Source: an uncultured Ignavibacteriales bacterium (GTDB taxonomy: Bacteria; Zixibacteria; MSB-5A5; GN15; FEB-12). Taken from it: a stretch of DNA of 45,486 bases. Both the position numbers and the translations under genes were made by a program. Of this stretch, positions 7,618 to 41,730 are shown one piece after another. The notes beneath the pieces are model-generated. The model saw only the letters and a program-made list of their open reading frames with translations. It made no database searches and was not told where the DNA came from. The stretch is from the NCBI GenBank assembly GCA_964455535.1, contig CAYVWS010000001.1, positions 1-45,486 on the forward strand, given 5' to 3'. Positions within the stretch are counted from its first letter, which is position 1, and the number at the start of each line of letters is the position of its first letter.

Positions 7618-10600
7618 GTGAAAAAAATCGTAGCTCTGTCAGTACTACTGGTCGTGTGCGCCGCCACGCTTCTGCCGGCCCAAGAGCGTGCCTTCGGCAA
7701 GAACAAGGTCACCTACAAGAAATTCGACTGGAAGTTCATTCAGACCCGGCACTTCGATATCTACTACTACGAAGATGCCTACTCGACCGCCAAGTTCGCT
7801 GCCGATGTCATGGAAGACGCCTACGTCGAAATCAGCCGCGAACTGGAATACAAGCTCCAGCGACGAGTTCCGGTGTTCGTCTATAACTCACAAAACGATT
7901 TCCAGCAGACTAACATTACCCCTGAATTGTTGCCCGAAGGTGTCGGCGGATTTACCGAGGCCTTCAAGAACCGCATTGTCATTCCCTTTACCGGCTCGTA
8001 TGAGGAGTTCCGCCATGTGCTGCACCACGAGCTGACACACGCCGTTGTCTACGATATTCTCTTCGGCAACTCGTTTGCCTCTTTACTTTCGCGCAATCGG
8101 CTTTTCGATCTGCCGCTCTGGTATGCCGAAGGGTATGCCGAATTTTCATCGCGTCATGGATGGGACTACTGGTCGGACATGTTCATCCGCGATGCGACCA
8201 TCAATAATTATATGGCCCCGCCCGACTATCTGGGCGGCTTCCTGGCCTACAAGCAGGGCCAGGCGATGATCAAGTACATCGTCGACAAGTACGGCGAAGC
8301 CAAGCTCGGCGAGATTCTGCAGAAAGGCAAAGTTCAGCTCTCGCTGAGCCGGGCTATGAAATCAGCGATCGGCGTCGACGAAAAAGAATTCTATGAAGAA
8401 TTTTCCAAAGAAATGAAACGGCGCTACTGGCCGGAAATTTCGGAGCGCAAGGAAGCGCCGGAGATCGGCAAGCAGTTGACCCACGCCCGCAAGGACGGTT
8501 CCTATTTCAACGAGCGACCGGCCTATTCTCCCGAGGGGGACAAAGTCGCGATCTTCTCCGATCGCCACGACTACGACGAAATTATTCTGTTGTCGGCAAC
8601 AACCGGCGAAGAGTTGGCGCGCGTCGTCAAGGCCCAGCGCTCAGGCGATCTTGAGTCACTGCACTCGTATTTCAGCGGAATGTCGTTCTCGGCCGACGGC
8701 AAACAAATCGCCTTCGTGGCCAAAACCAAAGGCAAAGACGCGATCTATCTTGCCGATGTGCGCCGCAAGAAAATCGTGAAGCGGATCATGCTGGACTTCC
8801 ACAACGTCCTCTCACCCAACTTTGCCCCCGACGGTGATCACATCGTCTTCTCGGCATTGGCCCAAGACAAACGCGACCTGTATTTGTATTCGGTCTCCGG
8901 CAACAACTTCAAAAAGTTGACCAACGACCGCTATGACGATGTCGAACCGAGCTGGACGCCGGACTCCAAGTCGATCATCTTCTCGTCCGACCGGCCGTCA
9001 CCGACAACTTCAAAAATCACCAATCTGGGTCAGGCCGCCACCGACTCCGCGATTCAAACCCCGGGCGGTTTCAGCTATGGCGTCTACAATATTTTCAAGC
9101 TCGACGTTGCCACCACCGAAGTGACACCCGTTGATGTCGGCTCCGGTTCCAACCGTTCCCCGGTTGTGTCACCCAACGGCAAGATGATCGCATTCGTCTC
9201 CAACCGAAACGGGATTGAGAATATTTATCTGGGATATCTGGATTCGGTCAAGTTTTACGCGGTGACCGACGTATTGACCGGAGTGCGGGACTTGTCGTGG
9301 TCGCCCGACGGACAAAAGCTTGCCTTCTCCGCTTTCTTCAACGGCGGCTTTGACGTATTCGTCATGAAAGACTTTGTCCCGGCCGGTGAGAACGGTGTCT
9401 TAAAACCGACCGATTTCATGATGGGCAAGTACAATCATCCTTTCAAGAAATCAGTCACGAAAGACGCCCTCGCCAAGCACGATTCAACCTCGGCGTCACC
9501 TGCTGATTCCGCCGGCGATTCGACCATTCTCGCCGCAGCCGATTCAACCGCCAATCCCGACACGACCGCGAAAAAGGACTCGGTCATTACTCAGACAGGC
9601 ATTCACGGCGATGATTTTGTCTATGTCAGCGGCCATGCACCTGATCCGATGGACACACTCCTCAAACCGGTACCCGGCGATTCCGCCGCAGCGCGCCCGA
9701 CCATGAAAGAGCCGGCATCTTTTGATTCGATTCCCCCGCCCTCGGAATCGGGCGAATACGCCGTTCACAAATACAAAGTGAAATTCACGCCTGACTATGT
9801 CGGCGGTGGCTTTGCCTACGACACTTTCTTCGGTGTGCGTGGTCAGTCGGTCTTCGTCTTTTCGGATTATCTGGGCAATCATCAGATTCTGATCGCGGCT
9901 GATCTGGTCAGCACGATCGACCAATCGTATGTCCAGGCATTTTATGTCAACAACGCTTCCCGGAATAACTTCGGTGTTGGACTCTTCCATACCAAGAACT
10001 ACTACGAAGACTCCAACAACTTCCTGTTTTCCGACCGGTACTACGGTCTGGCCGCATTCGCCGCCCATCCATTTTCGATTTTCAGCCGGATCGACGGCTC
10101 GGTGTCGCAGGTCTTTATCGACCGCAAATACTATGACGCGCTCGACCCGCACTACACTCATGACCGAAGCGTGAAAGTTTCTTATGGCGCCTTGTCATAT
10201 GTGTTCGATAACGTTTTATGGGGATATACCGGGCCGGTCAACGGACGTCGCTATGCGCTGACTGTCGACGCCGGCAAGGACCTTTTCACGTCGAATTCGA
10301 TGAGCTTCTACTCATTCGGTCTGGACTACCGCAAGTATTGGAATATCAGCAAAGTGGCATCGTTCGCCTTCCGCGCCTCCGGCGGAGCGTCATTCGGCCG
10401 CACCCCGAAGACATACTTCCTGGGCGGTGTTCAGAACTGGATCGGTTCGCGAGACCTCGATTCCCCGGTGTATGAAGTCGAAAATCTCTACTTCGCCGAT
10501 GTCGTCACCCCGATGCGCGGTCTGCCTATTTATGGGCTGGCCGGAGACCGCTATACCGCCTTCAACGCCGAACTTCGCTTCCCGCTTGTTCAGGTGCTGG

Positions 10601-10872
10601 CGTTCAAGTACCCGTTGCCGCTGGTCTTCACCAATATTCAGGGAGTTATGTTCACCGACATCGGTTCAGCGTGGTACGGCAGCAATTTCAAGGGTGGCAC
10701 ATCCGAAGGCGGCAAAGATCGGTTGCAGGATATTCACACCGGTTTCGGATTCGGGATGCGGATGAATTTCGCCGGTCTCGCCCTGCTTCGGTACGACATC
10801 GCCTGGCAGACCGATTTCAGCAAAGTATCGGACCGCCCCACCCACTATTTCTCGCTCGGCGCGGATTTCTGA
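7618..10872 (+). CDS. Large secreted/outer-membrane protein: HExxH peptidase-like domain + TolB-like PD40 propeller + Omp85-family beta-barrel
   Basis: Domains read in order:
- Signal peptide MKKIVALSVLLVVCAATLLPAQ.
- HELTH at 8026..8040.
- At least 6 PD40-like repeats (PAYSPEGDKVAIFSDR, SFSADGKQIAFVA, NFAPDGDHIVFSA, PSWTPDSKSIIFSSDR, PVVSPNGKMIAFVSNRNG, LSWSPDGQKLAFSA).
- D/S/T/A-rich linker.
- C-terminal Omp85 signatures (MRG at 10513..10521, NAELRFPL, FTDIGSAW, GFGFGMRMNF, terminal Phe).
GTG start preceded by AAAGGAA. Confidence 0.85.
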   Translation: MKKIVALSVLLVVCAATLLPAQERAFGKNKVTYKKFDWKFIQTRHFDIYYYEDAYSTAKFAADVMEDAYVEISRELEYKLQRRVPVFVYNSQNDFQQTNITPELLPEGVGGFTEAFKNRIVIPFTGSYEEFRHVLHHELTHAVVYDILFGNSFASLLSRNRLFDLPLWYAEGYAEFSSRHGWDYWSDMFIRDATINNYMAPPDYLGGFLAYKQGQAMIKYIVDKYGEAKLGEILQKGKVQLSLSRAMKSAIGVDEKEFYEEFSKEMKRRYWPEISERKEAPEIGKQLTHARKDGSYFNERPAYSPEGDKVAIFSDRHDYDEIILLSATTGEELARVVKAQRSGDLESLHSYFSGMSFSADGKQIAFVAKTKGKDAIYLADVRRKKIVKRIMLDFHNVLSPNFAPDGDHIVFSALAQDKRDLYLYSVSGNNFKKLTNDRYDDVEPSWTPDSKSIIFSSDRPSPTTSKITNLGQAATDSAIQTPGGFSYGVYNIFKLDVATTEVTPVDVGSGSNRSPVVSPNGKMIAFVSNRNGIENIYLGYLDSVKFYAVTDVLTGVRDLSWSPDGQKLAFSAFFNGGFDVFVMKDFVPAGENGVLKPTDFMMGKYNHPFKKSVTKDALAKHDSTSASPADSAGDSTILAAADSTANPDTTAKKDSVITQTGIHGDDFVYVSGHAPDPMDTLLKPVPGDSAAARPTMKEPASFDSIPPPSESGEYAVHKYKVKFTPDYVGGGFAYDTFFGVRGQSVFVFSDYLGNHQILIAADLVSTIDQSYVQAFYVNNASRNNFGVGLFHTKNYYEDSNNFLFSDRYYGLAAFAAHPFSIFSRIDGSVSQVFIDRKYYDALDPHYTHDRSVKVSYGALSYVFDNVLWGYTGPVNGRRYALTVDAGKDLFTSNSMSFYSFGLDYRKYWNISKVASFAFRASGGASFGRTPKTYFLGGVQNWIGSRDLDSPVYEVENLYFADVVTPMRGLPIYGLAGDRYTAFNAELRFPLVQVLAFKYPLPLVFTNIQGVMFTDIGSAWYGSNFKGGTSEGGKDRLQDIHTGFGFGMRMNFAGLALLRYDIAWQTDFSKVSDRPTHYFSLGADF

Positions 10873-11353: not shown

Positions 11354-13879
11354 TTATCGACGAGCGGGCGGACGCCGATTCTTGCGACGTTCGACGCGTT
11401 TTGACTTTCCCGCATTGTTCGGCGACAGTCCGTTATCCTTTTCATCGCGACCAAAGCGATCGATATCGAGCGCCATCTGTCGCAGTTTCTTATCGGCCAG
11501 ATCGAATACTGATCGCTCGGGAAACACACCATTCCTGCCGCGAGTTCCTCCGGTTACACCAGTGAGAATTTCAATACCCTGATCGATAGACTTCACCGGC
11601 CAGAGATGGAATTTTCCTTTGCGGATCGCGTCGATAACATCGGGTCGCAACAGCAAGTCCTGTACGTTCTGGTGCGGCAGCATCACCCCCTGCTTGCCGG
11701 TCAGCTTGCGACTATTGCAGACATCGTAGAACCCCTCGACTTTTTCGTTGATACCGCCGATCGGCTGAATTTCGCCTTTCTGGTTCACCGAACCGGTGAC
11801 TGCGATTCCTTGATTGATTGGAATGCCCGTCAGCGCCGAGAGAATGCCGTAGATCTCGGCCGATGACGCCGAGTCACCGTCGACGCCGCCGTACGACTGC
11901 TCAAAGGTAATCGAGGCCGACATCGCCAGCGGTTTGTCCTGCGCAAAGGTCTGACGAAGATATCCGGAAAGCACGGCCACACCCTTAGTGTGGATTGGGC
12001 CGGACAGGTCGGCCTCACGCTCAACATTGATAATGCCTGCTTTTCCCAAACTGGTGTTTACCGTGATTCGGCTGGGACGGCCGAAAGAATACTCGCCGAC
12101 ATTGTAGACCGACAGCCCATTGACCTGCCCGACCGCCGAACCGGTTGTCGAAACCAGGAGCATCTCTTGATCGAACATCTCCTGTATCTTGTCTTCGATC
12201 AGATTGACACGTGATCGCCGCCCGATGATCGCCTTTTCGACATCGGCGCGATTCACCGTTTTGCCGTCGCGCTCGCGGGCGCGGAAATCACTCTCGCGCA
12301 GTATGTCCGCGATCAGAGTGAAGCGCACCGTCAGCTTTTCGCGATGCCCCGCCAACCGGCGTCCATATTCGGCGACGGCGGCCATGGCGGAAGTCTCAAA
12401 CGACATCAGCTGATCGTCGTCGATAATTCTTCGCATGAATCGGTAGTATTCTTTGGTGTTGGCTACCGTGTACGGCATCACCGAATCAAATTCCGCCTTG
12501 ACCTTGAAGATCAATTTGAATTCCTCGTCCATCTGCCACAGCGCTCGATAGACCCACGGCTCACCGATCAAGACTACTTTGACATCGACCGGGATCGGTT
12601 CGGGCTTGATCCCTGAACCAGCCATCATGTAGAATGGATCGTATCCCGAAATTTCCATCTCGCCGTTACGCAGGGCACGCTTCAGATGTGTCCACACGCC
12701 CGGTTCAGTCAACAGATCGAGCGCGTTGACTACCAAAAATCCGCCAGAGGCCTTGAGCAGTGACCCGCAGAATATCCGCGTAAAATCTGTTCGCCAGTAG
12801 CCGTATCGATCGACTACCCGTTCCATCGAACCGAAGAGGTTCTTGTATGAAGGCGATTTTTCGAGGATCACAGGTACCTTGTGGGTTTGAGAGTTGTCCA
12901 GAAGAAGATTGACCGAAAATTCCTCGAACGGTTCGCGACGTCTGAAAGCCGGCGCTTCTTCCTCGCCGCGCCGGGGTTGCGACTCGGCATATCGGTCGTC
13001 GTCGGTGGCGAGCGCCTCTTCTACTTCCTGCAGATACGCGGTCACTTGCGGATCGGGGTAGCGTTTCTTGAGCAAGTTGACCTTATCTCCCACCAGCGGA
13101 GCGACCATCGAGTGATTGAGCTTTTCGATGGCGTCGTCGAGTTTCATCGCGAGCTTCTTGGACTCCACGGTTGTCAGATCGAAGTCCCGTCGCAGCGAGT
13201 CCCAGCGCCGGCGCATTTCGTCAAGCTGGGCGGCGGCATATTTCCCCTCTTTGGTCAAACGTTCAAGTTTTTCAAGTGAGGCCGGTTCATTGTCGATCAG
13301 CGGCTGAATCTCGTTGCGTGCCCCCATCGGCGTCTGAATCTGCACCATGACAAAACCGGCGGCGGTCAGTTTGTTTTCGAACTCCTGCACCAATTCGCGC
13401 TGACGATTTTCAAACTCGCGCACCACCCGCGAATGACGGTCTTTGTAGTCTTCCGACAAGAATATCTTTGGTATGACCTTGCGAAGCGAGTCAACCAGAT
13501 ACTGCATGTCCTTCTTGAACCGCTTGCCGTCACCGGCTTTGAAAATCAGAACTCGTGGATTGTCGGCATTGCGGAAATTATTGACATAACAAATGTCATG
13601 CAGACGCGGCTCTTTGTGTTCGAGTCGTTCCAACAATTGTGAGATGGTGGTGCTGCGTCCGGTTCCCGACATTCCGGTCACGAAAATATTGAACCCGCGG
13701 CTCGGCACACTCAAGCCGACCCTGATCGCTTCAATCGCCCGCTCCTGGCCGATGATATCGTACGATGGTGTGATGTCGGATGAACTCTTGGCCCCTTTCG
13801 GGGAATATGTAATTGTATAGTCGAGGTCTTTTGCGGACAATGTCTTGTGCGTGAGTGCGCGCCGCGTACGTGTGGGCAT
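11354..13879 (-). CDS. Lon-like protease (LonC-like; AAA-like domain with a long insertion, plus a Lon Ser-Lys protease domain)
   Basis: - Protease domain: GGVDGDSASSAE (Ser codon 11870..11872) and GGINEKVEG (Lys codon 11741..11743).
- Walker A-like GMSGTGRST has Arg at the Lys position (13655..13657).
- The Walker B position reads FLVVNALD (N-A at 12722..12727).
- About 300 aa of charged, coiled-coil-like insertion lies between them.
Start chosen at ATG 13879 (GGAG 6 nt upstream) rather than TTG 13942. Confidence 0.85.
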   Translation of the reverse strand: MPTRTRRALTHKTLSAKDLDYTITYSPKGAKSSSDITPSYDIIGQERAIEAIRVGLSVPSRGFNIFVTGMSGTGRSTTISQLLERLEHKEPRLHDICYVNNFRNADNPRVLIFKAGDGKRFKKDMQYLVDSLRKVIPKIFLSEDYKDRHSRVVREFENRQRELVQEFENKLTAAGFVMVQIQTPMGARNEIQPLIDNEPASLEKLERLTKEGKYAAAQLDEMRRRWDSLRRDFDLTTVESKKLAMKLDDAIEKLNHSMVAPLVGDKVNLLKKRYPDPQVTAYLQEVEEALATDDDRYAESQPRRGEEEAPAFRRREPFEEFSVNLLLDNSQTHKVPVILEKSPSYKNLFGSMERVVDRYGYWRTDFTRIFCGSLLKASGGFLVVNALDLLTEPGVWTHLKRALRNGEMEISGYDPFYMMAGSGIKPEPIPVDVKVVLIGEPWVYRALWQMDEEFKLIFKVKAEFDSVMPYTVANTKEYYRFMRRIIDDDQLMSFETSAMAAVAEYGRRLAGHREKLTVRFTLIADILRESDFRARERDGKTVNRADVEKAIIGRRSRVNLIEDKIQEMFDQEMLLVSTTGSAVGQVNGLSVYNVGEYSFGRPSRITVNTSLGKAGIINVEREADLSGPIHTKGVAVLSGYLRQTFAQDKPLAMSASITFEQSYGGVDGDSASSAEIYGILSALTGIPINQGIAVTGSVNQKGEIQPIGGINEKVEGFYDVCNSRKLTGKQGVMLPHQNVQDLLLRPDVIDAIRKGKFHLWPVKSIDQGIEILTGVTGGTRGRNGVFPERSVFDLADKKLRQMALDIDRFGRDEKDNGLSPNNAGKSKRVERRKNRRPPARR

Positions 13880-14514
13880 CTCTTCTCCGTGAGCAATGAG
13901 TGACGTTACACCAAGATACCCCCCGCAGTCGAGGGCGATCAACCATTATCCGCGGACACCGTCGAATGAGGGACTCAGTTGTGAAATGTGAAAGTGACGA
14001 AGCGTTTCACTCGCGAGCGGTCGAAAGGTGTCTCACAAGTCGAAATCTGATGGTTGAGACAAGATCACGATCACACCGAAACCGGCGATGCGATTTCACG
14101 CATTAAGCCGGCAAGTAGGCCGCACGTCGACCCGCCACACTCGAAGCCAAAGTCGCCGAAATGCGCCACACACCTCCAAAATCATCTGCGTGTCAATTTT
14201 GACACAGCACGCCAATTCGGCGATGTCGGCTCTCGCACACAGCCCGAATATGGACTTTGGTTACAGGCGAGCTTACCTAACCTATTGGTCGGCATAAGCG
14301 GCCACACATCCAGTCAGTCACACAGCAAGAATTTGGTTTTGAAGCTGACTTTGGACTGCCATCTTGGCATCCGACGCAGGACTCGCGCCCCTTAGATGTG
14401 ATATAAAATCCTTAGTTTTTGACCAAAAATGTTGAATATCACAACCGCTTAAGCGGCTTGAAATTAACAGAGGCGCGTCTCGCAAGCTATTGCCAAATAA
14501 CAAGATCGCATTTC

Positions 14515-14543: not shown

Positions 14544-14576
14544 CCTGCGTTGCTTTCTTAGCATTGCGCATGACTT

Positions 14577-14649
14577 GGCGGTATCGTCTAGTGGCCCAGG
14601 ACGGGTGGTTCTCAGCCATCAAACCGGGGTTCGATTCCCCGTACCGCTA
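14577..14649 (+). tRNA. tRNA-Glu (anticodon CUC)
   Basis: Manual cloverleaf:
- Acceptor GGCGGTA/TACCGCT, with G1-U72 wobble.
- D arm GTCT..GGAC.
- Anticodon stem GGTGG/CCATC with loop TTCTCAG (CTC).
- T arm CGGGG-TTCGATT-CCCCG.
- Discriminator A; CCA is not encoded. Confidence 0.9.
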
Positions 14650-14656
14650 GAGCCAG

Positions 14657-14775: not shown

Positions 14776-15423
14776 ATGAGTTGGCGACAAATCTTCTGGA
14801 CCTCGAATCTTCTTTCTCTGTCGCGCGTGGTGTTGATATGGCCGCTGGCGCACACGCTGGCGTTGCCGTCAACTGAAGGTGTCGTGGCCTCGCTCTCTCT
14901 CTTGGTCATTGCGGGTTTAACCGACTTTTTCGATGGCTACCTCGCGCGACGACTTAACCAAGTCACTCCGCTCGGCGCTGCGCTTGACCCGATTACCGAC
15001 AAGATCTTTGCCGCCGGCTTTATGATACTTCTGATAGTCCATCGGGAATTCCCGATCTGGCTGGCCGCTGTGCTCATCGGCCGCGATCTTCTGCTTTTGA
15101 TGGGTGGCCTGTTACTTCTGCAAAAACGAGCGGTTACTATTCCGGCCCGACTGTACGGAAAATATCTGTTCTTCGCGACGGTTATATTGCTGAGCAGCTA
15201 TGTGCTGCGATATGAGTTCGGCGAAATTCTGAGCACGGTCTTTGTGCTGGCTCTGTGTGCCGGCTCGCTTATCGACTACGCGGTGGTGTTTCGTCGTGTC
15301 TTAGGAGGACGTCCGCTACCGGAGTACGATTCAAAACCGGCCTATCGAAAGCTTCGTGTCGGCTTAACCGCGCTGGTATTAGTTGTCTTTGTCGCAGTCT
15401 GGATATATCAGAAGTTCTGGTGA
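14776..15423 (+). CDS. CDP-alcohol phosphatidyltransferase family protein
   Basis: Signature DFFDGYLARRLNQVTPLGAALDPITDKIF (D-x2-DG-x2-AR-x8-G-x3-D-x3-D) and several TM segments. Substrate not assignable. Confidence 0.85.
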   Translation: MSWRQIFWTSNLLSLSRVVLIWPLAHTLALPSTEGVVASLSLLVIAGLTDFFDGYLARRLNQVTPLGAALDPITDKIFAAGFMILLIVHREFPIWLAAVLIGRDLLLLMGGLLLLQKRAVTIPARLYGKYLFFATVILLSSYVLRYEFGEILSTVFVLALCAGSLIDYAVVFRRVLGGRPLPEYDSKPAYRKLRVGLTALVLVVFVAVWIYQKFW

Positions 15424-15442: not shown

Positions 15443-17824
15443 TCAGGGCTTTTGCTCGGCGGTGGCAATTCGTCGCAGGTACTCCTGTAGCCGCTTAATC
15501 ACAATACTTCCGCCCGGTTCAGCGTTGTCGAAACTGAGCCAGCCGGCCTCGGCCGCAAGATCATCCGCTGCCTGAAAGAACGCACCCTTTATGCTCAGCT
15601 GTGCCATGCGGGCGCGGTAGTCGGAATCCAGAGCATCGATCGCTTCGAGTACGGTGCGTCGCTTGCGCACATAGTCAAACTTCACGCTGTCGGCGTACTC
15701 TGCGGCTGCCGCTGCACTTTGCGCGGCCAACGGCATTTCCAGACCGTAACGCCACAAATTCTTCCACTCGTTTCCGACCGCGGCCTCAACCAACAAACGG
15801 GCCGAGTCTTTTTGTGCGACGGCGGCCTCGCGCTCGGCGCTGACTCCGAGCGGCGGGGTGTGGGCAAAGAGCGGCCAGCGCATTTGAGCCGTAATCGACC
15901 AGACATCGTGCTTTTCGTCAAATCCCACCTGCTCAGCGAGCGAGTCCACAAGTCCGAACCACCCGCGCAGGCCAAGACTCGGATACCGACTCGCCTTTCC
16001 ATGGGCAATTCGTGATTCCGCCAAACTTACCTCCGCCGATCGCAGCCGCATGGCCGGATTGGCGGCCAGCGCTTCGACCTGCATGAATTTCTCGGCGGCA
16101 AGACTGAATCGCTCTGACGACATGATCATGCGTATTGGAACAAACTGATTGATCATATCGCCGCTTGAATATCCGCCGGAGTCGAGAATGGTCACCGTAT
16201 CGAGCACCGGACGGCCCATCAGCAGGTGCAAAAGACTGATCTGTTCCTGCAGGGCACGACGCGCGTCCATCAGGTCACGTAAATTTTCAAGCCGGCGCAC
16301 TTCCCATCGCGGGGTGTCATCGGCAGCGCCCGGATCGATGAAGTTATTAAGTCGCGCGATTTCTTTGAATTCAACAATCCTGGCATTCAACCGACTGAGT
16401 TCAGCAATGGCACGCTGGGCATCCAGACAATCGCGATAGGTAGCACGAAGCAGCCGCTGGACATCAAGCTCTGCCTGGGCCAAAGATGCGGAATCGACAG
16501 TTCGATTCGAACGAGCGACACGGATCGACTTGCTGACCTGGGGCGCAAAGAGCGGCTGCTGCACTTCGATTCCGGCGCGATACCGACCGCGGGATACTTC
16601 TCCGAAGGTGTTATCGGTCGCCGATTTCGATGCCGCTGTTGCCGCGCCTTCAAATGACACTTCCGGCAAGTACCCGCGCTTAAGATTGTCCAGTCGTTGA
16701 CCTGCCGCGTCAATCCGCGAGATCAGACCCTGTAATCCGGGATTCTGCGTCTGGGCATTGGCGAGAGCTTCGGCCAGTGTCAGACTCTGTGCCTCGGGCA
16801 GCATTGCGAATTCATCGATGACCTCTGCTTGTGCCCATATTTCGGCAGCGACGCGATCACTGGACATATCCAGCGCCGCTTTGTTGAGGATATATCCTCG
16901 TTGAGATGGATACTCAAGCGGCAGATCGGAGGGCACCGCCCCCTGGATTATCTTAACTGTCTTCATCGCCGCAAACAGCGCCGCGCTTTGTTCGGCGCGG
17001 ACCGAACTGGATGATGAGAGCCCCTTCTCAACGATGAACCTCCCCTCGGATGTGTGCACCGGAATCATATCGTTGCGGGCATTGGCGCTGAATTGGTCAA
17101 GAGCAGGCAATGACAGCCCCCAGAGCGGCCCGACATAGAGAGCATCCATAGGCCGGGGAAGTCCGGAATATCCTTTGAAATACGCGAATACCCCGTCGGC
17201 GTTGTACCCCTGCGCCCAGACAATTTTGATCCCGAGTTTTTTGCCTGCCTGCCAGCATTTTTCATAATAGGCAGTGTCACGGAAATCTTTGTTGAACGCT
17301 AGCACTCCCACAACTTTGGGATGGTAAAGCGCAACCATGTCGCTTAGGTCCTGCTTGATCTGATCGGGGCGAACCTGCACGGTAAGGTTGTTGGCAATCG
17401 GCCGGTGATCCGGGCCTAACAGCCCTTCGGCTTCCGGGTCGAGCTGCCAAAGGCCGACGATGGGACGAGCAAATCCGGCCTTGAGCAGGGCCTCGACGAC
17501 CCACGGCCCGATTGCGACTACAATATCAATGCTCGTGTCGCGAACATATTCCTCCGCCATTTGCTTGCACTGATCCTTCTTCCATGCGGCGGTTTTGAAC
17601 CCATTGGCGACATAGATGATTTCCGCCGATGAGGGGACCAAATGCTCGAGGGCATCGCGATACTCGTTGCGAACGATAGTATTGTTGTAATATTCGCCGG
17701 CCTCGAAAAATCCAACCTTTACTACTTTGCGCGGGGCCGCGCCGACCGACAGCGGGAAGACCGCCAACAGTAATCCGGCCAAGAGGATAAATCGCTTTAG
17801 GGAGTGTACTTTCACGGCCCACAT
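15443..17824 (-). CDS. Fusion protein: periplasmic-binding-protein-like (ABC_sub_bind-like) domain + TolC-family outer-membrane efflux channel
   Basis: - Start set at ATG 17824 (MWAVKVHSLKRFILLAGLLLAVFPLSVGAAP signal peptide; in-frame GTG at 17815 is an alternative).
- About 16814..17731 reads like an ABC substrate-binding fold (KVVKVGFFEAG...IDIVVAIGPWVVEALLKAG..PIVGLWQLDPEAEGLL...NLTVQV...VVGVLAF...GIKIVWAQ...ALYVGP...IPVHTSEGRFIVEKG...IIQGAVPSDLPLEYPS...ILNKAALD).
- About 15446..16786 is TolC/OEP-like (LTLAEALANAQTQNPGLQGL..., two repeats).
- The 153 codons upstream in the ORF track look non-coding. Confidence 0.8.
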   Translation of the reverse strand: MWAVKVHSLKRFILLAGLLLAVFPLSVGAAPRKVVKVGFFEAGEYYNNTIVRNEYRDALEHLVPSSAEIIYVANGFKTAAWKKDQCKQMAEEYVRDTSIDIVVAIGPWVVEALLKAGFARPIVGLWQLDPEAEGLLGPDHRPIANNLTVQVRPDQIKQDLSDMVALYHPKVVGVLAFNKDFRDTAYYEKCWQAGKKLGIKIVWAQGYNADGVFAYFKGYSGLPRPMDALYVGPLWGLSLPALDQFSANARNDMIPVHTSEGRFIVEKGLSSSSSVRAEQSAALFAAMKTVKIIQGAVPSDLPLEYPSQRGYILNKAALDMSSDRVAAEIWAQAEVIDEFAMLPEAQSLTLAEALANAQTQNPGLQGLISRIDAAGQRLDNLKRGYLPEVSFEGAATAASKSATDNTFGEVSRGRYRAGIEVQQPLFAPQVSKSIRVARSNRTVDSASLAQAELDVQRLLRATYRDCLDAQRAIAELSRLNARIVEFKEIARLNNFIDPGAADDTPRWEVRRLENLRDLMDARRALQEQISLLHLLMGRPVLDTVTILDSGGYSSGDMINQFVPIRMIMSSERFSLAAEKFMQVEALAANPAMRLRSAEVSLAESRIAHGKASRYPSLGLRGWFGLVDSLAEQVGFDEKHDVWSITAQMRWPLFAHTPPLGVSAEREAAVAQKDSARLLVEAAVGNEWKNLWRYGLEMPLAAQSAAAAAEYADSVKFDYVRKRRTVLEAIDALDSDYRARMAQLSIKGAFFQAADDLAAEAGWLSFDNAEPGGSIVIKRLQEYLRRIATAEQKP

Positions 17825-18034
17825 TATACACAGAAACAGCCCAAAGGGGCAAGTCATCTGAAACTGTTCAGACCGGCTCAATCCGATATGCGAACTTAGG
17901 GACGGTGTCACTTTTTTGTCCGTTTGCGCAAATTTGTGTTGACGGAGCGATGAACAAATGCCGATACTTGGGGAACATATAGCAGTAAGCAATAAACCAA
18001 ATAGCATAACGCCGCGATTAAGAGAAAGAGTTTG

Positions 18035-18177
18035 ATGGTAATCACCATGACAAAAGCAAATGTGTGCCCGGTCAATACGGGATACGAACGCGGCGGGAGT
18101 GTGCCTTTGCCTTGAGGCGAAGTTACCACAGGCAATCTGTCCCGCTGCAACGCAAAGTTTCGGCGGGATTTTTTTTT
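18035..18177 (+). promoter_or_regulatory. Candidate leader peptide plus terminator/antiterminator (attenuator) upstream of the ABC exporter genes
   Basis: - 26-codon uORF at 18035..18115 (MVITMTKANVCPVNTGYERGGSVPLP), preceded by AGAGAAAGAG.
- Terminator-like hairpin CCCGCTG (18141..18147) / CGGCGGG (18161..18167), followed by A + T9 (18169..18177).
- An identical CGGCGGGA word inside the uORF (18091..18098) can pair with 18140..18148 instead (9 bp).
Structure was inferred by eye. Confidence 0.35.
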
Positions 18178-18224
18178 GAACCAATTGCCTGCCGAAAAAC
18201 ATCGCACGCAAAGGAAATGAAGAT

Positions 18225-20036
18225 ATGACTGCAGACTTGTATGAGCCCGAGCCGGGAGCCCGGGACGACAACAGAATAACCAATCGGGAAGCATTCGCCG
18301 CGTTGCGTCCGCTCTTGCGCCGTCACGCCGGCGGGCTGGCGTTCTGCCTTGGATTGCTGGCTGTTGCGACCGGACTGTCGCTGTATTGGCCGGTGCTTTT
18401 GCGCCAGGCGCTCGATGTCGACATCGCCAACAAGGACACCTTCGGCTTGTTGTGGACAGTCGGCTATATCGCGGCGATCCAACTCGTCACGCTGGTCTTC
18501 CAGTTGATACAGCGAGTGAAGCTTGAAGTCATCGGCCAGGAAGTCATGGTCGACCTCAAGCGCCGCTTGTTTGAGCATCTTTTGTCGCTGGACATTTCGT
18601 TCTTCGACAAGAACCCGGTCGGGCGACTGCTCTCGCGCGTGGAATCCGACACCGAATCACTTCGCATGCTGTTTACCAATGCGGCGGTGCTGATCGTCGG
18701 CGACCTGCTGTTGATCGTGGGCATCTTCGCGCTCATGTTCCACTACAGTTGGCAGTTGGCTTCGGTGCTGCTGTGTTTCGTGCCGGTAGTGCTGTCGTGC
18801 GTTTACTTCTTCCAGAAGATCACCACCCCGCGCTTTTTCGCGGTGCGCAAGAAGATGGCCGAAGTGACGGCGACTCTGACCGAAATGCTCCACGGCATGT
18901 CGATCATCCAGATCTTCCATCGCGGGGCCTATGCCCGCGCCCGGTTGAATGCGGCCAATAAGTCGAAATTCAAAGACGAGTTCTTTGTACATTCCGGCTT
19001 CGTGCTCTTTTTCAACCTAATGAGCTTCCTGCAGTATGCCGCGATGGCGATTGTATTGTTGTTCGGCGCGATATGGAAAGACTCGGGTGTGATCACGGTC
19101 GGAACTATCAGCATGTTCGTCGTGCTCATCTGGCGGTCGTTCGATCCGATCTACCGCACTTCGGAGCAACTGTCGGTGATCCAGAAAGGTTTGGCTGGCG
19201 CGCGTCGAATTGTCGGAATTCTGGGCGAGCGATCGGCTATTCCTGATCCGGCGACGCCTCTTCCGATACCGGCGCTGTCGTCGTCGATTCGATTCGAGAA
19301 CGTCTGGTTTTCGTACGGCGACGACGATCACTGGGTGCTGCGCGATGTCTCATTTGAAATCGCAGTGGGTCAGCGCGTGGCGCTGGTCGGTGTCACCGGC
19401 GGCGGCAAATCGACGATCATCACGCTGCTATTGCGGATGTACGATCCCCAAAAGGGCCGTATTCTAATCGACGGCGTCGATATTCGGTCATTCGCCAAGG
19501 CCGACCTGCGGCGGAAATTCGCGCTCGTGCTGCAGGATATTATCCTGTTCCCCGGCACGGTAGCGGAGAACATTTCGCTTGAAGACGAAGCGGTCAACGC
19601 TGACCGCATCAGGCAGGCCGGTGCCACGGTCGAAGCCGATCGCTTCATCGCTCGCTTGCCGCAACAATACGGCACCGTGGTGTCGGAAAAGGGCAGCAAT
19701 TTCAGTCGCGGTGAACGGCAACTGCTCTCGTTTGCGCGGGCGCTGGTCGTTGATCCCGAAGTGCTGCTGCTTGATGAAGCAACCAGCTCGGTCGATCCGG
19801 AAACCGAGCGCACGATTCAGGCGTCGCTCAAGAAGCTGATGTCGAATCGGACCTCATTGATTGTGGCGCACCGGCTGTCGACCATTCTCGATGTCGACCA
19901 GATTCTGGTCATACGCCGCGGCGAGATTATCGAGCGCGGCACCCATACGGAGCTGATTTTGAACAAAGAAGGGTACTACTCGAAACTCTTCCACTTGCAG
20001 TTCAAGAGCGGCTCAGGAGCAACTAACTATGCGTGA
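18225..20036 (+). CDS. ABC exporter, fused permease/ATPase subunit 1 (type I exporter fold, MdlA/BmrC-like)
   Basis: Six-TM N-terminal half. Walker A GVTGGGKST, Walker B LLLDEAT, H-loop VAHR. The signature is deviant: NFSRGERQ (FSRGE at 19701..19715). AAGGAAA RBS. Confidence 0.9.
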   Translation: MTADLYEPEPGARDDNRITNREAFAALRPLLRRHAGGLAFCLGLLAVATGLSLYWPVLLRQALDVDIANKDTFGLLWTVGYIAAIQLVTLVFQLIQRVKLEVIGQEVMVDLKRRLFEHLLSLDISFFDKNPVGRLLSRVESDTESLRMLFTNAAVLIVGDLLLIVGIFALMFHYSWQLASVLLCFVPVVLSCVYFFQKITTPRFFAVRKKMAEVTATLTEMLHGMSIIQIFHRGAYARARLNAANKSKFKDEFFVHSGFVLFFNLMSFLQYAAMAIVLLFGAIWKDSGVITVGTISMFVVLIWRSFDPIYRTSEQLSVIQKGLAGARRIVGILGERSAIPDPATPLPIPALSSSIRFENVWFSYGDDDHWVLRDVSFEIAVGQRVALVGVTGGGKSTIITLLLRMYDPQKGRILIDGVDIRSFAKADLRRKFALVLQDIILFPGTVAENISLEDEAVNADRIRQAGATVEADRFIARLPQQYGTVVSEKGSNFSRGERQLLSFARALVVDPEVLLLDEATSSVDPETERTIQASLKKLMSNRTSLIVAHRLSTILDVDQILVIRRGEIIERGTHTELILNKEGYYSKLFHLQFKSGSGATNYA

Positions 20037-21855
20037 TAAGATACGTTGGTTTTGGAAATACTATCGCAATTACAAATACGTGCTGGCGGTCCTGATCTTG
20101 TTGACACCGCTGCAAGTCAGTTTTCAGGTTTTTCTGCCGCGGCTGATCGAATTCGCTGTTGACTATGTCAAGACCGGCACGGTCAATCCGCATCCAGTCG
20201 CGCAGTGGCTGGTGGCAACAGGAAATGGTATTGGCTGGTCAACAGCTGTCACGCTTCCGGTGGCGGTGGTCGTGCTCGGCCTGATCGCGGCTTCGCTGTA
20301 CATCATCGTACAGGGACATCGTACCTGGATGAACATGAAACTCGAATGGGTCTTCAGGCAGGCGGCGTTTGATGGCGTAACGCTCAAAGGTCCGGACTTC
20401 TTCAACAAGTTCCGCACCGGCGATTTGGTCACGCGCATGACCGACGACGTTGCCGAAAAGCTCTCGTGGTTTGCCTGCTCGGGAATCTTTCGTTTCTACG
20501 AGGCCCTATTGATGGTCGCCTTTGCGGTGACAATGATGGTGAGCATCAATCCGAAACTTGCGCTCTACAGCGCCGGGCCACTGCCGATTCTGATTCTGAT
20601 CTTTTTCAAGACGTCGTCGCTTCTTGATAAGCGGTACGATGCGTTGCAGAAAAAGATCTCGCACTTCACCGATGTGATGGAGGCCTGCTTCTCAGGCATC
20701 AGAGTCGTGAAAGCATATGTTCGAGAGAAAGCACAGTCGGCGAAAGTCGATCAGGCATTAAGCGAAAGACGTCAGGCCGAAATTGACGCCATCAAAGCAA
20801 ATGTGCGGGTCGAGTCGATGTACTTTTACATCTGGCAGATCGGCATCATCATTGTCACACTCGCGGGCGGTTTGATGGCAATTGGCGGCAATTTGTCGGT
20901 CGGCGAATTGGTGGCGTTTGTGTACTATGTCGTCTATCTGGTCTTCCCGATGTTCGACATCGGCCAGTTCCTGGTCAAGTCACGCCAGTCGGCGGTCTCG
21001 ATTGATCGTCTGGTGGAACTCGAACGCGTCGCACCTATGGTAGCCGACGGCGGCTCCCGTGCGGGTAATGGAAACCTCCATGGCGCGCTGGCGTTTGAGC
21101 ATGTGCAGTTCAAATTTGACGACTCCGATCGGCAGATACTCGATGACATATCGTTCAATGTCAATCCGGGCCAAAAGATCGCGCTGGTCGGCAAAGTCGG
21201 ATCGGGAAAAACGTGGCTGATTAACCTGGTTCCGCGGCTGGTGGATCCAACCGGCGGTTCGATCAAGCTCGACGGTCACGATCTGCGCATGTACAAGCTC
21301 GAAGACCTGCGGGCAAGTATCGGCTACGTTCCGCAGGAGCCGGTCTTGTTCAGCGACACAGTGCGAAACAATATCCTGTTCGGGCGTGAGTCGATATCCG
21401 ACACCGTGCTCGAGTGGGCTATCGAAGTCGCGCAGCTCAAGGACGAGATCGCTACATTCCCGAATGGTCTCGATACCGCTATCGGTACGCGTGGGATGTC
21501 GATTTCCGGCGGACAGAAACAGCGTCTGGCGCTGGCGCGCGCGCTGGTCGGGAAACCGAAAGTGCTGATCTTAGATGACTGCACCTCGGCCCTCGATGCC
21601 CGCACAGAGGCGCGTTTGTGGGAGCGACTGCATGAAGTCATGCCCGATATGACGGCGATTCTAATCACACATCGCCCCGATACGCTCGAGCGGGTTGACA
21701 TGATCTATGTGTTGGATCAGGGCAAAGTGATTGAGTCGGGACGTCATTATGATCTGATGGCGCTCGGCGGTCATTATGCCCGCGTCTACAAGCGATATCA
21801 GTTGGCTGAAGAAGTGGGTGATGAGAACGCCGAGAAACGAGAGACCGAGAGTTGA
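20029..21855 (+). CDS. ABC exporter, fused permease/ATPase subunit 2 (MdlB/BmrD-like)
   Basis: Overlaps subunit 1 by 8 nt. Walker A GKVGSGKT and canonical signature ISGGQKQ. Walker B is LILDD, with Asp replacing the catalytic Glu (21577..21579). Confidence 0.9.
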   Translation: MRDKIRWFWKYYRNYKYVLAVLILLTPLQVSFQVFLPRLIEFAVDYVKTGTVNPHPVAQWLVATGNGIGWSTAVTLPVAVVVLGLIAASLYIIVQGHRTWMNMKLEWVFRQAAFDGVTLKGPDFFNKFRTGDLVTRMTDDVAEKLSWFACSGIFRFYEALLMVAFAVTMMVSINPKLALYSAGPLPILILIFFKTSSLLDKRYDALQKKISHFTDVMEACFSGIRVVKAYVREKAQSAKVDQALSERRQAEIDAIKANVRVESMYFYIWQIGIIIVTLAGGLMAIGGNLSVGELVAFVYYVVYLVFPMFDIGQFLVKSRQSAVSIDRLVELERVAPMVADGGSRAGNGNLHGALAFEHVQFKFDDSDRQILDDISFNVNPGQKIALVGKVGSGKTWLINLVPRLVDPTGGSIKLDGHDLRMYKLEDLRASIGYVPQEPVLFSDTVRNNILFGRESISDTVLEWAIEVAQLKDEIATFPNGLDTAIGTRGMSISGGQKQRLALARALVGKPKVLILDDCTSALDARTEARLWERLHEVMPDMTAILITHRPDTLERVDMIYVLDQGKVIESGRHYDLMALGGHYARVYKRYQLAEEVGDENAEKRETES

Positions 21856-21865
21856 TTTGTTGTAA

Positions 21866-21897
21866 GGTGGGTCCGTCCTCGGACCCGCCTTTTTTTC
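21866..21897 (+). terminator. Rho-independent terminator after the ABC pair
   Basis: GGTGGGTCCG-TCCT-CGGACCCGCC followed by T7. It lies between the convergent ABC and phoU genes; an A-run on the other side is absent, so it is mainly a plus-strand terminator. Confidence 0.8.
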
Positions 21898-21938: not shown

Positions 21939-22625
21939 TTATCTCAAAATGCTGTCGATTGTCGCCTGAGCGCGGAAGGGGTGGCGCACGATCTCGCCTT
22001 CGATCATGTAGGTCACATCTTCGGCGATATTGGTCGCATGGTCGGCAATACGCTCCAGATAACGCGAAACGGACAGGAAGAGAATGAAGGTGTCGATATT
22101 TTCGGGATGAGCCATGATGCCGTCGCGAATCGCCTGATACATGTTGCGGTGAATCTGGTCGACTTCATCGTCGGATTTGCGTACCGCCGAAGCTTCGCTT
22201 ACATCGGCGTGCATGAGCGAGTCGAGACTTCGTTTGAGCATCGCTTTGACAAGTGCGGCCATACCGTCGAGATCGAACGGCACGGCTACCTGCGGAAGTT
22301 TGGCGTAGGCAATCGCCCGCTCGGCCAGATTGACGGCCAGATCGCCGATCCGTTCGAGGTCGTTGTTGATTTTGAGAAGCGCGACGATAAACCGCAAGTC
22401 AACCGCCACCGGCTGATGCAGCGCCAGAACTTTCAGGCACTGTTCTTCGATTTCGACTTCCTGCTGATCGATTTCGTGGTCGGCTTCGATCACCGTGTTG
22501 GCCAGTCGGGCGTCGCGCGTGGCTACCGCTCGCACCGCCATGTGCACCGATTCTTCGACTATCGCCGACAGCCGCAGCACGCTTTGTTTGAGCTTGTCTA
22601 TTTCAACTTCCAAATGTCGTGACAT
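21939..22625 (-). CDS. phoU: Phosphate transport system regulator PhoU
   Basis: Two PhoU repeats (EADHEIDQQEVEIEEQCLKVLALHQPVAVDLR...; DDEVDQIHRNMYQ...ERIADHATNIAEDV). Confidence 0.95.
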   Translation of the reverse strand: MSRHLEVEIDKLKQSVLRLSAIVEESVHMAVRAVATRDARLANTVIEADHEIDQQEVEIEEQCLKVLALHQPVAVDLRFIVALLKINNDLERIGDLAVNLAERAIAYAKLPQVAVPFDLDGMAALVKAMLKRSLDSLMHADVSEASAVRKSDDEVDQIHRNMYQAIRDGIMAHPENIDTFILFLSVSRYLERIADHATNIAEDVTYMIEGEIVRHPFRAQATIDSILR

Positions 22626-22643
22626 GAATCAAACTCCCTGTGA

Positions 22644-23486
22644 TCATCCGAATCGACCGGTGACATAGTCCTCGGTCCGCTTTTCTGTCGGCTTGGTGAA
22701 CATCTGTTTGGTAGCGCCGTATTCGACCAGCACGCCTTCGTAGAAGAAGGCGGTGTAGTCCGACACACGGGCGGCCTGCTGCATATTGTGCGTGACGATT
22801 ACAATCGTGTACTGCTGGCGCAGTACGGCGATGAGATCTTCGATTTTCGAAGTCGAGATCGGATCGAGGGCCGAAGCCGGTTCGTCCATGAGAATCACTT
22901 CGGGGCGAACCGCCAGCGCGCGGGCGATACAGAGTCGCTGTTGTTGACCGCCGGAGAGCATATATGCGCTGACATCGAGTTTGTCTTTGACTTCATCCCA
23001 GAGATAGGCGCGCTTGAGACTGTCTTCGACGGCTTCCTGCACAATCAGCTTGTTGGTCACGCCGTTGACCCGCAGACCGTAGGCGACATTATCGAAAATC
23101 GATTTCGGGAAGGGATTCGATTTCTGGAAGACCATGCCGACTTTGGTGCGCAAACTTGAAACATCCTTGATGTCTTTGTAAATCTCAGTGCTTTCGAGTT
23201 TAACCGATCCGGTGTGGCGGGTGCCGGGGATGGTGTCATTCATTCGGTTGAGCGTTCGTAAGAAAGTCGATTTACCGCAGCCCGACGGTCCGATAAGCGA
23301 AGTTACTTTGTTTCGCAAAATCTCGATCGAGATCTCAAAGAGCACCTGATGATCGCCGTAGTAGAAGTTGAGTCCGGCGACGGCCATCTTGGGCGCGCCG
23401 GTCGGCGAGTGATCGCCGCGCGCGACACTGTCCAGGCGGGGCGTCACAATATCTGCTTCCGTCATTTGTTTTTCAGGTCCGGACAC
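22644..23486 (-). CDS. pstB: Phosphate ABC transporter ATP-binding protein
   Basis: [11 protein letters not shown]..., [49 protein letters not shown] start at 23486 overlaps pstA; ATG at 23465 is an alternative. Confidence 0.95.
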
Positions 23487-24432
23487 GACTCCTCCTCATA
23501 TGAGAGCGAATCAGAATGGCCACGAAATTCAGCAGGAACGTCAGCACCAGAAGCACGAGCACCGTGCCGTACAGAATCGGACGGGTCGCCTCGACATCGG
23601 GCGACTGAGTGGCCATGATATAGACATGATATCCCAGTTCCATGAACTGGTCGGTCAATTTGCTTGGCAAATACGGCAGGTAGTAGGCCGCGCCGGTAAA
23701 TAGTATGGGCGCGACTTCACCCGCGCCGCGACTAACCGCGAGTATCCCGCCGGTCAATATGCCGGGGATCGCCTGCGGCAGGACAACTTTCCAAATCGTC
23801 TGGAGTTTTGTCGCGCCGAGGGCATAGCTGGCTTCGCGAATTTCGCGCGGAATAGTCCGCAGCGCTTCTTCGGTGGAAATGATCACGACCGGCAGGGTGA
23901 GAAGTGAAAGGGTCAGCGCCGCCCAGATGATCGCGGGCTGTCCCCACACCGGTCCCGCGGTGCCGTAGAAAAGCTTGTCAATATTTTGCCCGACAAATCC
24001 CACGAAGAACCCCAGGCCGAATAATCCGAAGACAATCGATGGCACACCCGCCAGATTGGCAATCGCCACCCGAATCAACCGTGCGATTTTCGACTCCGGT
24101 CGGGTGTATTCGTGCAGATAGATGGCAGTGAACACACCAACCGGCACTACAGCAATGGTCATCAGGATCACGAGCGCGACCGTACCAAAAATCGGCGGCC
24201 AGATGCCGCCCTCGGTCATCCCCTGTTCGGGAGCTTTGCTTAAGAAGTCCCAGGAAATGATACCGTATCCGCCAATGACGATGTCACCCAAAATGATCAT
24301 CAGGACCGCAATAATGATTGCGGCGGCGGCGAATGTCAGCCCGCGAGGTATCGCGCCCGATGATTTCTTGCCCAGGGTAAACGGCGCTTTGGTCTGCTCT
24401 CGCGACGCCTGAGTCAGCAGACGAGGGCTCAT
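23473..24432 (-). CDS. pstA: Phosphate ABC transporter permease PstA
   Basis: Polytopic. [36 protein letters not shown] is the PstA-type EAA region. 4-nt overlap with pstC. Confidence 0.9.
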
Positions 24433-25388
24433 CGTGTCCTCCCCTGCAGACGCTCACGCAAGCGCTCCATCACCATATGCGATGACAGATTCACTAGGAA
24501 TGTAAATATGAAGAGTAGAACGCCGATGAAAAAGAGAACCGAGTAGTGTGTGTCGCCGAAGACTACTTCGCCAAGTTCGGCTGCAATGGTGGCCGAAAAG
24601 GTTCGGATCGGCTCGCTGAAGTTCATCGAAATGATCGCGGCGTTCCCCGAAGCCATCAGCACAATCATGGTCTCCCCGATAGCCCGCCCGAATCCGAGCA
24701 CCATACTGGCAAAAATTCCGGGTAGTGCCGCGGGTAGCACCACGGTGAACGATACCTGCCATCGATTGGCGCCGACCGCCAACGCGGCGTCGCGAAGGGA
24801 CTGCGGCACCGACACCATAGCATCTTCGGTGACCGTGAAAATAATCGGGATAATCGCGATACCGAGCGCGATACCGGCGGTGATTGCATTTAGGCGAAAG
24901 TCAAATCCGAAGGTTGTCTGGACAAACGACGCCAGCACAATGAGCGCAAAGAATCCGAGCACGACCGATGGAATACCCGCCAATAATTCTATGGTTGGTT
25001 TGATAATCTCTCGCATTCGACGGCTGGAAAATTCGGAGGAATACATTGCCGCCCCAACCCCCAGAGGGGCGGCAAACAGCATCGCTACGATTGCCGCTTT
25101 GAGCGTTCCCAAAAAGAGCGGCCACAGCGAAAACTTTGGATTATCCGAGTTCGGCTGCCACGACCACTTAGCCGGCTTGCCCTGAACAAACTCCTGCTTG
25201 AGAATCATCTTGCCCAAGCTGGCGTGTTCTTGCTGCTGAGGGTCGGAGAAGAGCGGAAGTGTCTCTTTGAAGATGAAAATGAAAATGAGCAGGATTCCGA
25301 CCAGCGCCACCCAGGCGTTGATCGCCAGAAACTTCTCGCCCAAAAACTCGCGTATTTTGGACTTTGGCTTGAACTTAAGTTCTTGCAT
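24429..25388 (-). CDS. pstC: Phosphate ABC transporter permease PstC
   Basis: Polytopic. VVLPAALPGIFASMVLGFGRAIGETMIVLMASGN is the PstC-type EAA region. It is the first gene of a pstC-pstA-pstB-phoU run. Confidence 0.9.
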   Translation of the reverse strand: MQELKFKPKSKIREFLGEKFLAINAWVALVGILLIFIFIFKETLPLFSDPQQQEHASLGKMILKQEFVQGKPAKWSWQPNSDNPKFSLWPLFLGTLKAAIVAMLFAAPLGVGAAMYSSEFSSRRMREIIKPTIELLAGIPSVVLGFFALIVLASFVQTTFGFDFRLNAITAGIALGIAIIPIIFTVTEDAMVSVPQSLRDAALAVGANRWQVSFTVVLPAALPGIFASMVLGFGRAIGETMIVLMASGNAAIISMNFSEPIRTFSATIAAELGEVVFGDTHYSVLFFIGVLLFIFTFLVNLSSHMVMERLRERLQGRTR

Positions 25389-37134: not shown

Positions 37135-37165
37135 GACTACCCGCTTTCGTACCTGACCGGAACGA

Positions 37166-38272: not shown

Positions 38273-38286
38273 ACAATCTCCCTTGA

Positions 38287-39045: not shown

Positions 39046-39068
39046 GATGTTTCCTTATACGATAGTAT

Positions 39069-41623: not shown

Positions 41624-41730
41624 TCTGTTACACGATTGCAGCCGATCTGAGGCCAAGAATACCGCACCGGAGCACCAAAGTCAACCCGCTATCCTGATGG
41701 TAGTTACGATACGACAAGTCACTTCCGGAT

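Follow-up and report, generated by a model that had tools for sequence, protein, structure and literature searches.

A TolC-family outer-membrane factor joined to a periplasmic-binding-protein domain in Zixibacteria

TolC-family outer-membrane factors (OMFs) are the trimeric exit ducts of tripartite efflux and secretion machines; they are usually regarded as passive, constitutively available ducts that are opened by an adaptor, and in E. coli the tolC gene is unlinked to its adaptor genes. Helices H1 and H5 of TolC form an equatorial belt around the middle of its 100-Å periplasmic barrel, and the lipid anchor of OprM originates at the same equatorial domain (PMC8277102). The solved members of the Pfam family PF04392 (ABC_sub_bind) bind L-Tyr, L-Trp, and L-Phe (PMC6816091, PMC10443332). 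Here we analyzed a 45,486-nucleotide stretch of DNA (hereafter the window; contig CAYVWS010000001.1 of assembly GCA_964455535.1) from an uncultured Ignavibacteriales bacterium of the Zixibacteria lineage. It contains a gene, hereafter the fusion gene, whose product joins a class I binding-protein domain of the PF04392 type (the N-domain, or flytrap domain) to a complete TolC-type OMF, and which stands head-to-head with a pair of ATP-binding cassette (ABC) exporter genes. Judged from the comparisons below, the most likely role of the flytrap domain would be that of a ligand-binding collar, regulatory or stabilizing, on the duct.

The original prediction, made from the DNA letters and their translations, had described a single open reading frame (ORF) that carries a signal peptide, a binding-protein-like domain, and a full TolC channel, and translation, Pfam, profile, and fold matches all agree with this description (Table 1). 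The maximal ORF around the gene extends to position 18283; the NCBI-derived database protein P0001 is identical to the window protein and has the same 793-residue start and length. The N-terminus, MWAVKVHSLKRFILLAGLLLAVFPLSVGA/AP, reads as a signal peptidase I-like signal in which a lipobox Cys is absent, and a hydrophobic leader ahead of a conserved G-[FY]-[FL]-E-[GA]-G motif was seen in 60 of the 60 family N-termini displayed. An AlphaFold2 model of the full-length monomer, built from a 79-sequence alignment, reached a pLDDT of 92.3 and a pTM of 0.84, and replaced a poor earlier model based on 8 sequences (pLDDT 61). The pTM value suggests a fixed packing of the flytrap domain against the channel.

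By every sequence and fold criterion applied, the fusion protein is a member of the TolC/OMF family. Pfam OEP (PF02321) matched it in two stretches (8.9e-19; 68.5 bits against a cut-off of 22 bits), and the family profile aligned to TolC residues 3 to about 408 at 6e-36, the alignment starting at profile position 343, which corresponds to TolC mature residue 3. A single-sequence phmmer search of the C-terminal half against the PDB gave no match; it was the family profile that succeeded. The secondary-structure order assigned by DSSP past residue 350 is exactly that of TolC, H1-H2-S1-S2-H3-H4 followed by H5-H6-S4-S5-H7-H8-H9, and Foldseek matched the C-terminal part to TolC, ST50, and Klebsiella TolC at TM-scores of 0.75–0.77. 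The complete two-repeat OEP architecture of these proteins (PDB 1EK9, 5BUN, and 7NG8) is present in the fusion protein too, which, like E. coli TolC, has a signal peptidase I signal and no lipid anchor. It differs from them in the Venus-flytrap domain of about 305 residues placed before H1, which is found on no solved or described TolC. The window protein lies outside the type I secretion TolC subfamily (NCBIfam TIGR01844), scoring 63.6 bits, far below the cut-off of 225 bits.

Profile searches had been suggested as a check on both domains and their boundaries. OEP passed its cut-off, as given above, whereas PF04392 matched residues 76–319 at 6.6e-5 with 22.7 bits, slightly below the gathering score of 25.9 bits, and the domain was recovered by profile and fold instead. 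The assignment to the PF04392 type is secure despite this sub-threshold score, because homologue annotation, phmmer, the family profile, and model superposition agree. PF04392 is present in the precomputed Pfam annotation of the homologues P0002–P0004 and P0008; phmmer with just the N-domain as query picked up CD0873, a tyrosine-binding protein (6HNI), at 2.7e-5; and the family profile searched against the PDB matched 3LKV (1.7e-17), 6HNI (3.4e-16), and 3LFT (3.3e-13). Foldseek with the N-domain of the model returned the same three structures, at TM-scores of 0.84 for 3LKV, 0.81 for 3LFT, and 0.78 for 6HNI. The PF04392 proteins VC_1101 (3LKV, Phe), SP1069 (3LFT, Trp), and CD0873 (6HNI, Tyr) thus share one class I fold with the N-domain (TM 0.78–0.84), and the motifs V-E-K-G and D-P-x-x-x-G-L are common to both sides, although identity is merely 16–20%. 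The model is nearer to the closed form of CD0873 (TM 0.78) than to its open form (TM 0.67).

Within the fusion protein, conservation is highest in the N-domain, which is more strongly constrained than the channel. Across the 79 aligned sequences, 32 of its 306 positions are at least 90% identical, compared with 5 of 438 in the channel, and tblastn identity to distant loci is 37–40% for the N-domain and 21–24% for the C-domain. The invariant Gly, Trp, Asn, Thr, Tyr, and Glu residues of the N-domain fall in loops following beta-strands, and it is just after the beta-strand ends that class I binding proteins build their cleft and ligand site. An HMMER alignment places Glu260 at the position of CD0873 Glu263 and Pro233 at that of Pro236, while the specificity position equivalent to CD0873 Tyr279 is an alanine (Ala277) in the window protein. 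Glu263 of CD0873 contacts the ligand (PMC6816091).

Importer receptors of the PF04392 family are free or lipid-anchored, whereas the flytrap domain here is covalently joined to an outer-membrane channel. Genes for the permease and ATPase of a matching importer are absent from its vicinity, and the recurrent neighbors of the 56 loci described below include no importer permease; the only further ABC genes of the window encode the exporter pair and the phosphate importer PstCAB. The N-domain belongs to the PF04392 fold family, yet by function it does not qualify as an importer receptor.

Homologues were collected by a word-indexed protein search, an exhaustive HMMER search with the N-domain as query, and genome and metagenome scans. 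The word-indexed search gave seven homologues with 28–68% identity, six of them 779–789 residues long and the seventh (P0007) 744 residues long with a truncated N-terminus; the junction and linker region is conserved among them. With the N-domain alone, HMMER returned 97 cluster representatives at E<1e-30, nearly all of 770–800 residues, and stand-alone binding proteins of about 330 residues entered only beyond E~1e-13. The genome scan contributed 14 loci and the metagenome scan, which used the sequence subset sharing GPW[VT]VEDL and is biased to that clade, contributed 42, giving 56 distinct loci after removal of near-duplicates. Every complete gene at these loci covers the whole two-domain family profile, and the named records are metagenome-assembled genomes labeled Candidatus Zixiibacteriota, GN15, or 'Ignavibacteriales'. 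Whether the fusion recurs, or whether its homologues are separate genes, had been posed as a check; with the two domains joined in 56 loci and about 97 clusters, separate genes are not the pattern. The fusion is ancient and recurrent, and is the rule in its family, a large and evolutionarily stable one that comprises about 100 Zixibacteria clusters (50% identity) and more members in Eisenbacteria and other uncultured lineages. The architecture had also been taken for one that is not a characterized system, in keeping with what was found: Foldseek and the family profile retrieved no PDB chain spanning both domains, literature searches for an OMF fused to a binding-protein fold found no description, and the NCBI label of one fusion protein (P0151) is merely 'TolC family protein'.

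The genomic setting of more distant fusions was examined for an outgroup of seven proteins that share the collinear architecture. One of these, P0142, aligned collinearly with the window-protein family in hhalign (probability 100, E 2.5e-57, 760 columns). At six of the seven loci (P0142, P0140, P0110, P0119, P0157, and P0151, the last from Candidatus Eisenbacteria), a membrane-fusion protein (MFP) gene follows immediately after the fusion gene, and in five of the six a resistance-nodulation-division (RND) pump gene (ACR_tran) follows the MFP gene; for P0110, the contig stops too early for the next gene to be recognized. Because these fusions are encoded together with a classical MFP, the extra domain does not look like a replacement for the adaptor, and the gene order suggests that the flytrap-bearing duct is used alongside it.

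A stretch of 13 residues separates the end of the binding domain from the position equivalent to TolC mature residue 3, at the start of helix H1. Because it is attached at H1, an equatorial-belt helix, the flytrap domain, of about 35 kDa, would be held away from the periplasmic tip, beside or above the belt and farther from the inner membrane than the tip of the channel. We propose that three flytrap domains form a collar at the equatorial belt of the trimeric periplasmic barrel, just under the outer membrane. The fusion gene of the Zixibacteria clade appears, by analogy with E. coli tolC, to behave as an orphan tolC, and nothing can be read from the lack of a nearby adaptor gene, since the adaptor genes of E. 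coli tolC are not linked to it either. Like orphan TolC, the fusion protein may serve as a shared exit duct for adaptor-dependent pumps encoded elsewhere in the genome. The flytrap domain would modulate or stabilize this duct without forming a bridge to the inner membrane, and its predicted ligand is a small periplasmic molecule, possibly one resembling an aromatic amino acid. That the domain is an accessory module of this kind, one that binds a ligand and modulates or stabilizes a shared TolC-type duct, is the reading we hold to be probable. We likewise favor the alternative offered in the original prediction, in which the domain may sense or gate a periplasmic ligand. A conserved ligand-binding fold on the duct points to unexplored regulation or stabilization of efflux and secretion at the outer membrane, and, if the domain does bind a ligand, the fusion protein would offer a simple, testable model for the allosteric control of TolC-type channels.

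The main rival is a purely structural collar, a flytrap domain that has lost ligand binding and acts as a rigid buttress, stabilizing the trimer or tethering it to the outer membrane or the peptidoglycan, in a manner analogous to the N-terminal lipid anchor of OprM-type proteins or to the lipoprotein YbjP on E. coli TolC. YbjP binds around the TolC equatorial belt. The TolC-YbjP complexes 9V52 and 9TG4 were among the Foldseek matches of the TolC part, so TolC-binding accessory proteins exist, and together with the OprM lipid anchor and the collagen-like extension of Burkholderia Bucl8 they are accessory elements on a standard duct, as the flytrap domain would be; the accessory here is a whole ligand-binding fold in the same polypeptide. 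The flytrap domain is attached at the very point from which the OprM lipid anchor originates (PMC8277102), the fusion protein itself has no lipobox, and the pTM of 0.84 suggests rigid packing on the channel, all of which a buttress would explain. However, a pure buttress would need no flytrap cleft, and the N-domain is the most conserved part, keeps its invariant residues in the post-strand loops where class I proteins hold their ligands, and retains the equivalent of the ligand-contacting Glu263 of CD0873. We regard loss of ligand binding as possible, with the balance of evidence against it.

A more specific form of the accessory-module reading is a ligand-gated exit duct, in which three flytraps clamp the belt and the ligand allosterically controls channel opening or adaptor recruitment. 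The design, a flytrap joined to a channel or transducer, is that of ionotropic glutamate receptors with their amino-terminal and ligand-binding domains, of the GABA-B receptor, and of bacterial sensor kinases, and the amino-terminal domains of NMDA receptors were among the fold matches of the N-domain. Unlike those receptors, the fusion protein has no homology to them in its channel part and resides in the outer membrane and periplasm, and gating is hypothetical here. We consider gating of this kind rather unlikely and put it forward tentatively; if true, bacteria would have an outer-membrane equivalent of flytrap-gated ion channels, and efflux would be subject to a new level of post-translational control.

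The flytrap could alternatively capture a periplasmic solute and hand it to a pump, the duct being dedicated to exporting that compound. The binding of small aromatic amino acids by the PF04392 fold and the conservation of cleft-region residues would both suit such a role. The domain is, however, wrongly placed to feed the channel, because the barrel of TolC-type proteins offers no side entrance at its equator and substrates enter via the pump or adaptor at the tip (PMC8277102), and substrate capture appears improbable. In addition, we know of no precedent for a substrate-capture module on a TolC-type duct.

The original prediction had favored an adaptor-free tripartite system, in which the binding domain docks the duct to the divergent ABC pair and replaces an HlyD/MacA-type adaptor. 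Part of its basis stands. Two overlapping exporter-type half-transporter genes do diverge from the fusion gene across a gap of about 400 bp, as both Pfam and the coordinates show, and the fusion gene is head-to-head with such a pair in the window and at 17 distinct loci. The window does lack an adaptor gene as claimed: a Pfam scan of all its roughly 31 large ORFs (45 kb) found no HlyD/MFP-family adaptor, and jackhmmer searches seeded with E. coli AcrA, MacA, and EmrA, which covered 1,531 stop-to-stop ORFs from the window and all loci and, in a second round, 1,838, found none in the window or at loci L001–L064, with adaptors recovered in all of the control loci (L069–L074). In the same search, no MFP gene lay within 8–10 kb at any of the 56 Zixibacteria-type loci.

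The docking itself is contradicted by the MFP operons, by the attachment at H1, and by the patchy adjacency of the ABC pair. A classical MFP accompanies six of the seven outgroup fusions, in five of those six together with an RND pump, and a domain held at the equatorial H1 by a 13-residue linker cannot span the remaining periplasm. The ORFs lying up to 6 kb from the fusion gene were clustered in a neighborhood survey, the counts of which are drawn from related genomes and do not represent independent events. Of the 37 distinct loci that extend 3 kb or more upstream, 14 have the ABC pair upstream and divergent (17 loci in all) and the other 23 lack it; whether the pair always adjoins the fusion gene had been posed as a question, and it does not. 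Other upstream neighbors at loci elsewhere were an ATP synthase operon, uvrA, and a rex-like gene. Identity across loci is far higher for the ABC pair (63–90%) than for the fusion protein (30–68%), which fits a housekeeping pair that may simply be held in synteny.

The ABC proteins themselves, of about 600 residues, have no C39/CLD or periplasmic domain for such docking; Pfam found ABC_membrane and ABC_tran only. HlyB-type NCBIfam models scored 337 and 292 bits on the pair against a cut-off of 725 bits, the pair failed to reach the cut-off of either the type I secretion or the MacB-type families, and the best NCBIfam matches, all below their cut-offs, were MsbA-like and SmdB-like for the first protein and SmdA-like and MsbA-like for the second. 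Unlike HlyBD-TolC and MacAB-TolC, the system has an ABC pair of neither HlyB nor MacB type and no adaptor gene within 45 kb. The first protein has a canonical Walker B (LLLDE) and a degenerate signature (FSRGERQ), and the second a degenerate Walker B (LILDD, with Asp for the catalytic Glu) and a canonical signature (ISGGQ), the genes overlapping by 8 bp. Adjacent half-transporters with paired degenerate Walker B and signature motifs are also found in TM287/288, TmrAB, BmrCD, LmrCD, and E. coli MdlAB/SmdAB, and its motifs mark the pair as a heterodimeric exporter of the ordinary kind, in which one ATP site is degenerate. Heterodimeric exporters of these types are not known to need an OMF. Replacement of the adaptor by the flytrap domain is very unlikely, and the label of an adaptor-free ABC-TolC machine should stay out of the annotation of this locus; the ABC exporter may rather be a frequent syntenic neighbor, perhaps co-regulated via the divergent region, with no direct adaptor-free docking to the duct.

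An assembly or annotation artefact, in which binding-protein and TolC genes were joined by a frameshift or a chimeric contig, might be suspected from the a priori oddity of the architecture and from two low-quality metagenome loci (L062 and L064) where the gene is in pieces, but it is excluded for practical purposes because the fusion recurs in independent assemblies, 56 independent loci and about 97 cluster representatives agreeing in junction and length, the linker region is conserved, and the full-length model is confident.

Several points weigh against the accessory-module reading that we prefer. Conserved N-domain residues show a modest enrichment just past the ends of the beta-strands (14 observed, 8.8 expected; p=0.03). 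Where the domain sits was deduced from chain connectivity and established structures and not seen in the model coordinates. The ABC pair is always divergent in its 17 distinct loci, above the expectation from random placement, and there may be some functional or regulatory link between it and the fusion. The outgroup N-domains are divergent and have no GPW motif, and they may thus work differently from those of the Zixibacteria clade. Finally, no adaptor or RND gene is encoded in the 45 kb of this organism, and that the partners lie elsewhere is what we infer.

Table 1. Features of the fusion locus in the window
Feature	Position	Strand	Remarks
PgsA-like CDP-alcohol phosphatidyltransferase	14776..15423	+	Convergent with the fusion gene; Pfam 4.3e-28
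Fusion gene (signal peptide, PF04392-like domain, TolC-family outer-membrane factor)	15443..17824	-	793 aa, uninterrupted ORF
Complete TolC-type outer-membrane-factor module, aa 350-788, two repeats	15461..16777	-	OEP, profile, Foldseek
Linker, aa 337-349 (13 residues), from binding domain to TolC helix H1	16778..16816	-	DSSP of the model
Class I periplasmic-binding-protein (Venus-flytrap) domain, PF04392-like, aa ~31-336	16817..17734	-	Foldseek and family profile
Signal peptide, aa 1 to ~29	17738..17824	-	Signal peptidase I type, read from the translation
Divergent intergenic region between fusion gene and ABC pair, 400 bp	17825..18224	.	ORF coordinates
ABC half-transporter 1, 603 aa	18225..20036	+	ABC_membrane 8.3e-46, ABC_tran 2e-29
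ABC half-transporter 2, 608 aa	20029..21855	+	ABC_membrane and ABC_tran (Pfam)

The 400-bp divergent region contains weak sigma-70-like matches on either strand. The top match, at 17823–17852 (−) with 10 of 12 positions (TTGCCC, 18 nt, TATAAT), covers the annotated ATG at 17824. Homologues start about eight residues further in, and the GTG at 17815 may be the true start; the signal peptide is unaffected.

A PgsA-like gene lies downstream and convergent at about 21 of the 33 distinct loci having at least 1.5 kb of downstream sequence. It was the most persistent neighbor overall (about 24 distinct loci, always convergent) and is kept even where fusion identity is 28–30%. The product encoded in the window scored 87 bits against NCBIfam pgsA, below the cut-off of 109 bits. 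This association may be plain synteny or an envelope-lipid link, and we do not claim the PgsA-like protein as a functional partner.

On the upstream side, a gene for a single-domain CheY-like response regulator (125–167 residues; Response_reg 1.1e-21) lies on the same strand as the fusion gene at 16 loci (L010, L022, L024, L025, L029, L030, L034, L036, L039, L041, L051, and L056–L061; for example L022:4284-4646 and L041:7503-7880). Its distance to the fusion gene is 0–230 bp in most cases and 478 and 779 bp at two loci, and where both occur it separates the fusion gene from the divergent ABC pair. The gene is absent from the window, and a search of the 400-bp gap found no remnant of it. In one subclade (seven loci, including L017:2020-3165, L018:809-1963, L049, L050, and L053:6750-7871), a multi-pass membrane protein of about 373 residues with no Pfam match is encoded directly upstream on the same strand.

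Next to the ABC pair, a PhoU-PstB-PstA-PstC phosphate-uptake operon occupies positions 21939–25388 (−) without an adjacent pstS, and the roughly 850 bp upstream of pstC contain no ORF longer than 129 residues. A relation of the flytrap domain to this Pst importer was considered and rejected, PF04392 being of the class I, aromatic-amino-acid type and not a PstS-type fold.

Elsewhere in the window, a 463-residue ORF at 200–1591 (−) combines LpxC (2.6e-90) with a FabA/FabZ-like dehydratase (8.5e-37) in a bifunctional lipid A/fatty-acid enzyme, and this LpxC-FabZ fusion confirms a lipopolysaccharide-containing outer membrane. A 1084-residue PD40/peptidase-MA (tricorn-like) protein is encoded at 7618–10872 (+) and a LonC/LonB-like protease (AAA_32, LonC_helical, Lon_C) at 11354–13942 (−); in L001, L008, L016, and L047, the closest relatives, both genes keep their synteny with the fusion locus. 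The sole RNA gene found in the window by Rfam and ARAGORN was a tRNA-Glu (anticodon CTC) at 14576–14650 (+). A two-component system is also encoded in the window, as is a surface-polysaccharide cluster at 33343–41656 (−), which contains two DegT-type aminotransferases, a GT4 glycosyltransferase, a MurJ-like flippase, a hexapeptide acyltransferase, a Wzz/GNVR chain-length protein, and a Wza-like Poly_export/SLBB protein.

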